In this document: positions 1,379-57,124 of the stretch, piece after piece | Layout of the letters: every line of letters starts with the position of its first letter | How positions within the stretch are numbered: the stretch's first letter is position 1 | DNA from: Eledone cirrhosa | Lineage: Eukaryota | DNA length: 64,000 nucleotides | Reading direction: 5' to 3' | NCBI GenBank assembly: GCA_964016885.1 | Contig: OZ024743.1 | Span: 119,660,001-119,724,000 of the forward strand | Translations under genes and position numbers: made by a program | Notes under the pieces: generated by a model | Databases searched by the model: none | What the model was told of the DNA's origin: nothing | The model's input: the letters and a program-made list of their open reading frames with translations, nothing else

Positions 1379-1815
1379 GAGCGGAGCAAGCAACTATCAA
1401 ACAATCTTTTAAATAAATTAAAAAACGATTTATATTGCTGTTACCGACGGTTTCACTAATCAAAAGATTGGAAATCCAGAGAATTTCCAATAGAAAGAAT
1501 TAAATCTTCAGACAGCTATTTCCATACTATAAGGGTGCAAACCTCATAGTAAGTCAATATTTCGCTTACTGCCTGACGCATGCGGTCAAGCCGTTGAAGT
1601 GACGCACACGCAAAATTAGGCCACAAGTAAAAACGGGTTATTATAAACTTGCTGATCATGCCGCGGCCGCTAAAAATAGCAGCGCGATACAACGTTTTGT
1701 TCTCTACATAAGGAGAAAAATTATAAAAGGGTATGGATATTCAGACAGGCACTAGGTACCTACAGAAATATGCATGGTGTTTATAATAGTTGTGGTTCGA
1801 TATATATATATATAT

Positions 1816-2342
1816 GTCAGGTCGCTCACGAGTGCTACTGGTAACATGTAAGTCAGTACAACCTCTCTCACGGTCCGGGCGACGGCGACTCAAGCGGCAG
1901 CCCTACCAAGCTTGCTTGGTGAGGAGGGTGATATCCGGACACCCTGCAGGATGAAATACAAGACCCGTCAAAGGGCGGAGGAACTCGGCAGAGTCAACGA
2001 CCATCCAAATAGTACTTTTTTTTTCATCTGGGAGTGAGAGGCCCCCAGTTGTTGTCACAACAGCTTTCTAGGAGAGAGAAACTCTGGAAAAAAAAACCTG
2101 CGGCTTCAAAAGCATCCGATGATGTTGACGAGTTCTCCTTTTCGAGTAGTATTTTGGATGCTCAGAGAGTGGGATTGGTCGAGTGCAAGGCCTTTCCCCA
2201 CTTAAAAAACCCTTCAAAGTACAGGCATTGCTTGTTCAGGCTCTATTACGGGTTCGTGTGGCTGGTAGTAACCTAAAAGTGCACCATTTTCTGTAATCTG
2301 ACAAGCGATTGCAATACTCTTAGCAGAGTTTGCAGCCATCAT
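1816..2342 (+). mobile_element. short non-autonomous RTE-derived retroelement (structured 5' module plus RTE-like 3' tail)
   Basis: 5' ~190 bp is homologous to 5755-5950(-) and 44550-44739(-). The 3' end gcaatactc-ttagca-gagtttgcagccatcat-(AT)n resembles the tail of the RTE at 50435. Flanked by (TA)n. Confidence 0.7.
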
Positions 2343-5532: not shown

Positions 5533-5539
<7 letters not shown>

Positions 5540-5949
5540 ACTCTCCCGTCGATATCTGACATATGAGGGTCCAACAAAAGTTAAATGTGAGAAATTGAAC
5601 TGATGTTGAACTACCCACAGAAAGTTTTGGTTTAAGTGGTGAAGGCTTGTGTAGGATCAACCACACTTTTTGGAACTGACGACACATATCTTCGGTACAA
5701 ATATTTGCCATGGAAAATACAAAGACAGCCCTCAAAAGACAAAAACAAAATACCATTTGGATGGCCGTTGACTATGCTGAGTTCCTCGGCCCTTTGCCGG
5801 GTCTTGTATTTCATCCCGCAGGGTGTCCAAATATCACCCTCCTCACCAAGCAAGCTTGGTGGTTGCCGGTTTAGTCACCGACGACCCGACCATGAAACAG
5901 GTAGTACTGGGTTACATGTGTTACCAGTAGCACTTGAGAGTGACGTGGC

Positions 5950-5950
<1 letters not shown>
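5533..5950 (-). mobile_element. short non-autonomous RTE-derived retroelement
   Basis: Shares the 5' module with 1816-2010. The 3' end gtc-agatatc-gac-gggagagtccatcat-(AT)n is an RTE-type stem-loop tail. (TA)n on both sides. Confidence 0.7.
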
Positions 5951-5997
<47 letters not shown>

Positions 5998-43362: not shown

Positions 43363-43395
43363 CATACATACATTCATACATACGCACATACACAC

Positions 43396-43787
43396 ATGGT
43401 GGCTGCCAACTCGTTTTCGAGTACGGCCACTACTTTATATCCATGTAGGAGAACCCCCACCGATGCGCCGAACGAGTGTGACTTTCTCCAGTCCAGCCAG
43501 TGACTTGAAAACTCTGGTACAAACACTACACCTGTGACAATTATTGACACATAGTGCTGGGCCCATGGTACCACGTGACGACAAGTGCAGAGAGATCTCC
43601 AGATATAAAGCAATGCCTGTGCCGTGAAGCTTTTATAGTGAGCACAAAGCCAGTCCCACTCTCTTAACCAAGATGATATTTACCAAAAAGAAGAACAAGT
43701 CAACATCATTGGATACCATCAGAGTTGCAGGTGTTATATCAGAGTTTTCCTTCTCCTAGAATTATTGACACATAGTGCTGGGCCCAT
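43396..43787 (-). mobile_element. non-autonomous RTE derivative, 5'-truncated
   Basis: Near-duplicate of 44145-44515; tail gtggccgtactcgaaaacgagttggcagccaccat followed by TG/TATG repeats. Confidence 0.75.
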
Positions 43788-43861
43788 ACATACATACATA
43801 CATACATACATACATACATACATACATACATACATACATACATACATACATACATACATAC

Positions 43862-44135
43862 ATGATGGCTGCAACTCGATTTCGAATAATGTCATCGTTT
43901 GATACTTAAGCATGAGCACCATGGATGTAGCTTTTTAGTCATCCTAGGGACTTGCCTATGACTAGCAATACCATGCACCGCAAAAAACATGCCACATATC
44001 AAGCGATGTCTGTGTTTTTAAGTGAGGAAAGGCTTTGCACGCGGCCAATCCCACTCTCTGAACATTGAATGCATTTACCCCAAAAGAAAAACTGGTCTAC
44101 ATCATTGGTTGCAAACAAAGTCGCAGGTTTTATAT
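43862..44135 (-). mobile_element. diverged non-autonomous RTE derivative, 5'-truncated
   Basis: Tail ttcgaaatcgagttgcagccatcat-(GTAT)n; body is weakly similar to its neighbours (cccactctct, catcattgg, gcaggt). Confidence 0.6.
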
Positions 44136-44144
44136 CATACATAC

Positions 44145-44739
44145 ATGGTGGCTGCCAACTCGTTTTCGAGTACGGCCACTACTTTATATCCATGTAGAAC
44201 TCCTGCCGATGTGCTGAACGTGTGTGACTTTTTAGTCCAGCCAGCGACTTGAAAACTCTGGTACAAACACTACACTTGCGACAATTATTGACACATAGTG
44301 CTGGGCCCATGGTACCATGTGATGACAAGTGCAGAGAGATCTCCAGATATAAAGCAAAGCCTGTGTTGTGAAGCTTTTATAGTGAGCAAAGGCACTGCAC
44401 AAAGCCAGTCCCACTCTCTTAACCAAGATGATATTTACCAAAAAGAAGAACAAGTCAACATCATTGGATACCATCAGAGTTGCAGGTGTTATATCAGAGT
44501 TTTCCTTCTCCTAGAATTCTGCCTTGACAAAGGCTAAGGGGTCATCTCTCCCGGTGATTTTGGATGGCCATTGACTCTTAAGAGCTCCTTTGCCCTTTGA
44601 CAGGTTTTGTATTTAGTCCTGCAGTATGTCCAAAGTCACCCTCCTCACCAAGAAACCTTGGTGGGGTTGCCAGTTTATGACCCGACCATGAGACAGGTTG
44701 TACTGGGATGTTACTAGTAGCACAAACTGGTGACCTCAC
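44145..44739 (-). mobile_element. full-length short bipartite RTE derivative
   Basis: Structured 5' module, a C2H2 remnant CSVCTRVFKSLAGLKSH, and an RTE-type tail; flanked by (CATA)n. Confidence 0.75.
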
Positions 44740-44878
44740 ATACATACATACATAGATACATACATACATACATACATACATACATACATACATACATACA
44801 TACATACATACGTACGTACATACACACACACACACACATACATACATACATACATACATACATACATACATACATACA

Positions 44879-57004: not shown

Positions 57005-57124
57005 ATAGGAATGAGTAGGACCCCGACGGCTGAGCTCAAGCCGTTTCGTCGGCTAATTCTGGACGTCCAGAATTAGCTGTCGAAACGGCTTGAGCTCAGC
57101 CGTCGGGGTCCTACTCGTTCCTAT
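57005..57124. repeat. 120-bp spacerless palindrome
   Basis: Centred on gacgtc (57062-57067); the arms differ at about 4 positions. Confidence 0.92.

Follow-up and report, generated by a model that had tools for sequence, protein, structure and literature searches.

The first ~60 nt of an RTE-type non-LTR retrotransposon of Eledone cirrhosa show the sequence layout of a flaviviral subclass-1a xrRNA (Xrn1-resistant RNA), the knot with which dengue- and Zika-type viruses halt RNA-degrading enzymes, and their predicted fold is this same ring-like knot. That the head of the element has an xrRNA-like fold is very likely, and through this predicted knot it would probably set the exact 5' end of the element's RNA by halting a 5'-to-3' exonuclease, not by self-cleavage. 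The module was noticed in the window (the whole 64,000-nt stretch of DNA that was analysed), where a sequence-only reading had taken it for a twister-like structure. The twister reading is rejected; the conserved features of the module, at the level of the letters, appear to fit a class-1a xrRNA instead.

Copies, architecture and relatives of the element

Three homologous modules of ~195 nt, starting at 1816 (+), 5949 (−) and 44739 (−), lie in the window (Table 1). Their identities of 77–85% and E values down to 5e-62 confirm the claim that three copies share an ordered series of hairpins: the TACTGG/CCAGTA and ACCAAG/CTTGGT hairpins, the GAGGAGGGTGA string and the downstream domain were all found in them. 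A (TA)n or (GTAT)n tract directly precedes each module. The element starts at GTCAGG, 6 nt upstream of the gTCAC with which the sequence-only reading had opened the module. The bodies behind the three modules had been said to differ; this holds for copy 2, whose body is distinct, but not for copies 1 and 3, whose bodies are homologous (69% over 408 nt).

Two full-length loci, L061 and L062, run from the module through an APE-RT-zinc-finger ORF to a (GTAT)n tail, and homologs of this LINE bear PF03372 and PF00078. One APE-RT ORF, a microsatellite tail and derivatives that retain both ends (L061, L062) make up an RTE-type layout; the clade, which we take to be RTE, is named from its motifs and the sequence-only reading. 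The module heads both the full-length LINE and short, internally deleted derivatives; it was correctly described as a structured 5' module conserved among RTE derivatives. The short A elements finish on the 3' side as L061 and L062 do, and since these LINEs also begin with the module, the window copies can be identified as bipartite non-autonomous RTEs. Copy 1 is made up of ~480 nt of LINE 5' UTR and ~50 nt of LINE 3' end, followed by the microsatellite. All three window copies are decayed, and each fails the xrRNA descriptor described below.

Behind copy 3, at 43387–44137 (−), lie two further RTE-derivative pieces, head to tail, one of them the 3' portion of another family and the other a C copy truncated at its 5' end; here RTE derivatives insert into one another's (GTAT)n tails. 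A near-perfect 110-nt palindrome at 57010–57119, present too in L009 and L010, has the look of a MITE-type repeat. An Rfam scan of the whole window returned only microsatellite or hairpin noise among the 150 listed of 214 matches.

Table 1. Positions of the three window copies and of the predicted structural parts of copy 1
Feature	Position	Strand	Remarks
Copy 1, short bipartite RTE derivative, subfamily A	1813..2342	+	ends as in L061
Copy 1, xrRNA-like core, decayed	1813..1874	+	mismatches in P1 at 1865 and in Pk2 at 1871
Copy 1 core, 5' half	Pk1/triple nucleotides 1815-1817; P1 1818-1822 with 1861-1865; P2 1823-1834; junction C 1835	+	
Copy 1 core, 3' half	P3-L3 1836-1858; J3/1 1859-1860; S4 1866-1874	+	
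Copy 1, P4 hairpin with invariant CGACU(A/C)AA loop	1876..1903	+	stem covaries, loop pairing invariant
Copy 1, two hairpins, CACCAAG/CTTGGTG and AGGGTG/CACCCT	1904..1945	+	contain the GAG-GAGGG of the sequence-only reading
Copy 1, second domain	1946..2010	+	A-rich-loop hairpin (6/6 lineages) and CTC/GAG hairpin (4 genomic subfamilies)
Copy 2, A-type module on distinct body	5533..5952	-	homology searches
Copy 2 core, decayed	5889-5952	-	U2 to C, P1 mismatch, 2-nt insertion in L3
Copy 3, subfamily C derivative	44145..44742	-	homology searches
Copy 3 core, decayed	44685-44742	-	P1 mismatch, deletions in L3 and P4

The host genome is 3.0 Gb in size and rich in microsatellites. The core pattern matched it 11,817 times and a reversed-pattern control not once; the module family has at least 11,817 copies in the genome, and three contig runs of one sample confirmed the high copy number. 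In the genome searches for copies, 30/40 listed loci were taken each time. Four genomic subfamilies, A, C, D and E, were distinguished, with modules 85–93% identical between them; copies are 92–98% identical to their own subfamily consensus, and 111 of 116 were classified. Wider relatives were sought among 80 RTE sequences from metagenome contigs, many of them without a 5' end. The whole module is present in L172 (E 1e-16) and L177 (E 5e-15) and the core alone in L145 (E 1.6e-4). Subfamilies A, C, D and E together with L172 and L177 are counted below as six lineages, and L145 as the seventh. At L170:20-150 (E 0.02–0.1), P3, the junction C and the 3' strand of P1 are present and the 5' strand is not clear; this sequence, possibly a degenerate fourth lineage, was excluded from the counts. 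The core pattern had no match in a prokaryotic genome collection, and the module motif was not found in the eight supplements searched for the published octopus element RTE-2_OV. A quick APE tree (197 columns), too weak to order events, places the module on three separate branches.

The xrRNA-like core and the failure of the twister reading

Subclass-1a xrRNAs, as characterized in the accessible text of five sources (PMC8374639, PMC7527734, PMC13161572, PMC7749634, PMC5760640), combine a P1 of 5 bp, a P2 of 1–9 bp, one junction C and a P3 of 4–8 bp with a 2-bp Pk1, a U-A-U triple and Pk2. In all seven lineages the module contains, at the level of the letters, a three-way junction with a 5-bp P1, a 4–8-bp P3, a variable P2 and a single C between P2 and P3. 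A 2-bp Pk1 with G-C as its second pair is found in six of the seven, L145 being without the 5' bases of Pk1, and the positions of the triple, U2 and the A-U second pair of P3, are invariant in the letters of all seven. Pk2, sought as ~3–8 bp between L3 and S4 beginning 1–6 nt after P1, has 4–5 bp in six of the seven lineages and is weak in L177, with 3 bp. Its self-complementary CAUG does not vary among the genomic subfamilies; L145 has UAGU/ACUG in place of this CAUG/CAUG. The module departs from subclass 1a at the junction pairs, which are given as exclusively C-G in viruses in the available part of PMC13161572: C-G was not found at all junction positions, the P1 closing pair being U-A in the module versus C-G in 18 of 18 viral loci, and the P3 opening pair U-A in the module, C-G in L145 and U-A in only 1 of the 18.

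Directly behind the core, at 1872–1890 (module nt 57–75), GGUCG and the CGACU of the P4 loop, both of them invariant, are complementary in 6/6 lineages and would form a possible second pseudoknot. The truncated copies L019 and L097 start at the GUCGG of this putative pairing.

A subclass-1a descriptor was assembled from literature-derived features, after the module had been seen. It passes 6/6 RTE lineages (four subfamily consensuses and two metagenome lineages) and 13 of 18 flavivirus-size viral genomes, but none of 41 other viral-contig pattern matches and none of 24,000 dinucleotide shuffles; its 99 matches in 1.93 Mb of fetched loci are, every one, module copies. Rfam models were also used. 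An intact A copy aligns to the whole of RF01415 (flavivirus SL-IV) with the same junction (16.8 bits, E 0.96), and RF01415 is the sole Rfam match of an intact D copy (19.5 bits, E 0.12). A genome search with this model, in which 64 of ~217,000 candidates were scored, gave three matches at E ≤ 10, all of them module 5' ends (29.0–29.6 bits, E 6.6–9.0), a level at which 7 of 14 control genomes match too. The best of these scores, 29.6 bits, is far below the gathering score of 54.5 and equals those of three true viral xrRNAs: among genuine flaviviral elements, three score 27.3–29.7 bits and the others 50–58. RF03547, the general flavivirus xrRNA model, gave no genome match at E ≤ 10 among 141 candidates. 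In the reverse direction, a model made solely from the RTE module matches 5 of 18 viral xrRNAs in register (E 0.001–0.24).

Several helices change with their pairing preserved. Two pairs of P2 show compensatory changes (C-G/G-U/C-G/U-A in A; A-U, G-C and C-G variants in C, D and E), and P2 lengthens to 6–7 bp across lineages. Pair 4 of P3 changes from UA to CG and, in L172, Pk1 changes from UA to GC, pairing being kept in both, and P4 and the AGGRUG/CAYCCY hairpin both covary. P1 shows a two-sided change in none of the RTE lineages; in two single copies, at L015:1500-1560 (−) and L110:1500-1560 (+), both partners of a P1 pair are altered and the pair is preserved. In a 9-row alignment 94.6% of cells pair, versus 21–43% in slid controls. 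Covariation was assessed over 6–7 lineages, and its support is modest because the two-sided pair count is reached by 36 of 500 shuffles. The pairing probability of P1 in full 195-nt folds, computed with a pseudoknot-free model, is 0.00–0.92 by lineage (0.00–0.06 in A, D, L172 and L177), and is 0.48–0.97 when only the first 60 nt are folded. Among 89 young C copies, the recurrent variants (at least 9 copies) all fall outside the core, at position 66 and within L2 and the S4 linker. A 5'-GUCRCY/GGUGAY closing helix was considered and dropped on comparison across subfamilies.

The Rfam twister models and the pairing of the proposed stems across subfamilies both came out against a twister. No twister model, RF03160 included, matched copy 1 or three intact copies, while the positive control L123 scored 49.8 bits. 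In the register proposed, P2 of a type-P1 twister pairs at one of three positions in subfamily C, and T1 at two of three in D and one of three in E; the cleavage strand is UCG/UCA, not N-A-A, and the loop ends in GGU, not AAGC. Of 60 copies selected by their downstream body, none starts at positions 6–12, the site a twister would predict. The suspicion that this was not a working twister was thus sound, and the fold itself falls. The strings cited for it find other places: ACCTG, thought to pair with CGGGT, most likely pairs with 5' CAGGT, since L172, L177 and L145 keep that partner and lose the downstream CGGGT; GAGGG, the supposed twister strand, belongs to a further pair of hairpins, of which AGGRTG/CAYCCY covaries; and UCA/UCG, the supposed cleavage site, lies where P1 meets P2 in another structure, one that covaries. 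The second multi-stem domain survives in part, with its A-rich-loop hairpin conserved in 6/6 lineages and the remainder only in the four genomic subfamilies.

A true twister RTE family exists in the same genome, with 25 matches to twister-P1 (best 49.8 bits, E 2.7e-10, L123); the cleavage-site AA opens 15 of the 20 copies fetched as a control. This family (L123–L142, for example G000:C4:96354674-96354728) starts at the cleavage site inside (TA)n and has at least two subfamilies (L123, L125).

Insertion junctions and the proposed origin of the 5' end

Half of the 60 body-selected copies, two query loci among them, start at G1 of GTCAGG; 8 are without the module and 22 have scattered starts. The copies are embedded in (GTAT)n/(TA)n tracts. 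T precedes G1 in 104 of 110 cases and G stands at −1 in only 4 of 110 full-length junctions; there is therefore no clear cap-derived G. The phase of the microsatellite breaks between −4 and −3, where 36 of 185 full-length junctions have TT against a background of 75 in 3330 (p 2e-20), with a shoulder between −5 and −4. With clean microsatellite flanks, TT is found at 22 of 100 full-length junctions and at none of 45 truncated ones (p 2e-4), a set that includes a few cross-family alignments; in a looser 6-nt window the contrast is marginal (27/100 versus 5/45, p 0.05). On the simplest reading of these DNA junctions, the copied RNA opened with UAU ahead of G1, 5–6 nt before P1, which would be the published halt site of Xrn1: the available text of PMC5760640 places it 5–6 nt before P1, and that of PMC13161572 two nt before PK1.

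We propose a model whereby the element is transcribed within a longer RNA initiated upstream, which would be decapped or cut and its leader digested by Xrn1 or Xrn2 until the enzyme stalls 5–6 nt before P1. Target-primed reverse transcription would then copy the protected, uncapped RNA. The first 3–4 nt of this RNA, usually UAU from the microsatellite target, would supply the Pk1 U as well as microhomology with the (GTAT)n/(TA)n tract targeted next. In other RTE lineages the slot that the xrRNA-like head would occupy is taken by twister or HDV-like ribozymes. HDV-like folds are found at the same 5' place, upstream of the ORF, in the sister lineages L157 and L176 (no antisense matches) and a twister in another clade, and the slot therefore appears exchangeable between module types. 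In R2, HDV-like folds are credited with exonuclease resistance in the accessible part of PMC12222951. The P3/P1 letters of the L176 HDV-like fold resemble the xrRNA-like core, a possible evolutionary link between the two.

Could the flaviviral likeness be a coincidence of a small three-way junction, in an ordinary structured RTE 5' UTR bound by an RTE protein? The Rfam scores are sub-threshold, RF03547 is without a match, conserved hairpins abound in RTE UTRs and other folds compete with P1. However, every subclass-1a position is found together at the exact 5' end, a combination that none of the shuffled sequences attains, Pk1 and Pk2 vary with pairing kept, and the RTE-module model and the viral xrRNAs match reciprocally; we consider coincidence unlikely. 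Rather less probable again is a diverged or novel self-cleaving ribozyme, derived from a twister or an HDV-like fold and cutting just upstream of G1. RTE 5' ends often bear ribozymes, according to the parts of PMC8501958 and PMC5786205 that were available; the P3/P1 letters are like those of L176, and 11 of 16 letters match by eye the twister P4-L4 of L123. Yet Rfam scans of copy 1 and the intact copies returned no ribozyme family at E ≤ 10, the twister register is broken between subfamilies, and an HDV descriptor (nested P1/P2/P3/P1.1 pseudoknot and J4/2 C) that finds L157 and L176 recovers 0/7 modules. Likenesses to hatchet and pistol had no Rfam match and were dropped.

More weight, though it too is improbable, belongs to an explanation in which the xrRNA fold is real but an internal Pol II promoter sets the 5' end, the knot only protecting the RNA after decapping or serving as a protein or ribosome handle. 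Internal promoters are expected to give sharp 5' ends, as seen here, and a start 3–4 nt upstream could equal the transcription start; moreover, a ~70-bp LINE head shared by mollusc SINEs is proposed as a promoter in the available text of PMC4758252. Against an internal promoter stand the scarcity of G at −1, a junction offset that equals the Xrn1 halt distance, and the self-cleaving folds at the same place in sister lineages, which imply upstream-initiated precursors. Beyond the proposed halting of an exonuclease by the head, the chances seem about even that a functional class-1a xrRNA serves the RTEs of several animals as a ribozyme-equivalent 5' module that can be exchanged, that it is a cellular xrRNA in more than 10,000 copies, and that the near letter-for-letter flaviviral match reflects retrotransposon–flavivirus exchange or an origin from an HDV-like 5' ribozyme.

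Significance and comparison with known systems

The accessible text of a 2021 review describes xrRNAs as characterised in viruses only and asks whether cellular xrRNAs exist (PMC8374639), a question that this element renders testable. A literature search, with subscription journals largely outside its coverage, found no report of a natural retrotransposon xrRNA. If the proposal is true, an RNA device so far confined to viruses is present in a cellular genome, and a third route to a precise 5' end of non-LTR retrotransposons exists besides promoters and ribozymes. It would account for the full length of every second sampled copy, with a start at the very same base, it predicts thousands of stable decay intermediates from host transcripts with sense copies, and it bears on the origin of the flaviviral xrRNA fold.

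The closest likeness is to the mosquito-borne flavivirus subclass-1a xrRNA (RF01415, RF03547; described in parts of PMC8374639 and PMC7527734), with which the module shares the order and lengths of Pk1, triple U, 5-bp P1, variable P2 and single C, the P3 with an A-U second pair, the 2-nt J3/1, the L3-S4 pseudoknot and P4. Most core letters are identical, and P3 with L3 spans 23–24 nt in the module versus 19–23 in the viral loci. Unlike the flaviviral element, which lies in the viral 3' UTR, the module heads a chromosomal non-LTR retrotransposon; it has two U-A junction pairs, a self-complementary Pk2 and a possible second pseudoknot behind, and its resistance is predicted.

Twister T-variants of the RTE Perere-3, as presented in the accessible text of PMC8501958, and the twister RTEs L123–L142 hold the same slot and the same proposed job, a defined 5' end with flank-derived first nucleotides; Perere-3 copies likewise begin with the cleavage-site AA (PMC8501958). 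The module, in contrast, is without UAA, P2, T1 and T2, its copies do not start at the cut site, and exonuclease stalling is proposed for it. HDV-like ribozymes at the 5' ends of RTE and other LINEs (Ruminski 2011, via the available part of PMC5786205), L157 and L176 included, share the slot and an L3 loop pairing just after P1, whereas the module is without P2, P1.1 and the J4/2 catalytic C. The ~70-bp head of LP-SINEs, Nimb-17_LMi, I-3_DR and RTE-9_CPB, read as a promoter in the same portion of PMC4758252, is likewise a short conserved 5' extremity on unrelated bodies; the module motif was not found in the four searched supplements of that paper. In overall architecture, a LINE 5' UTR joined to a LINE 3' end and a microsatellite tail, the short elements are the same as the bipartite RTEs Bov-A, RTESINE and WALLSI3 (described in part of PMC5786205), relative to which the structure at the head is the new part of the module elements.
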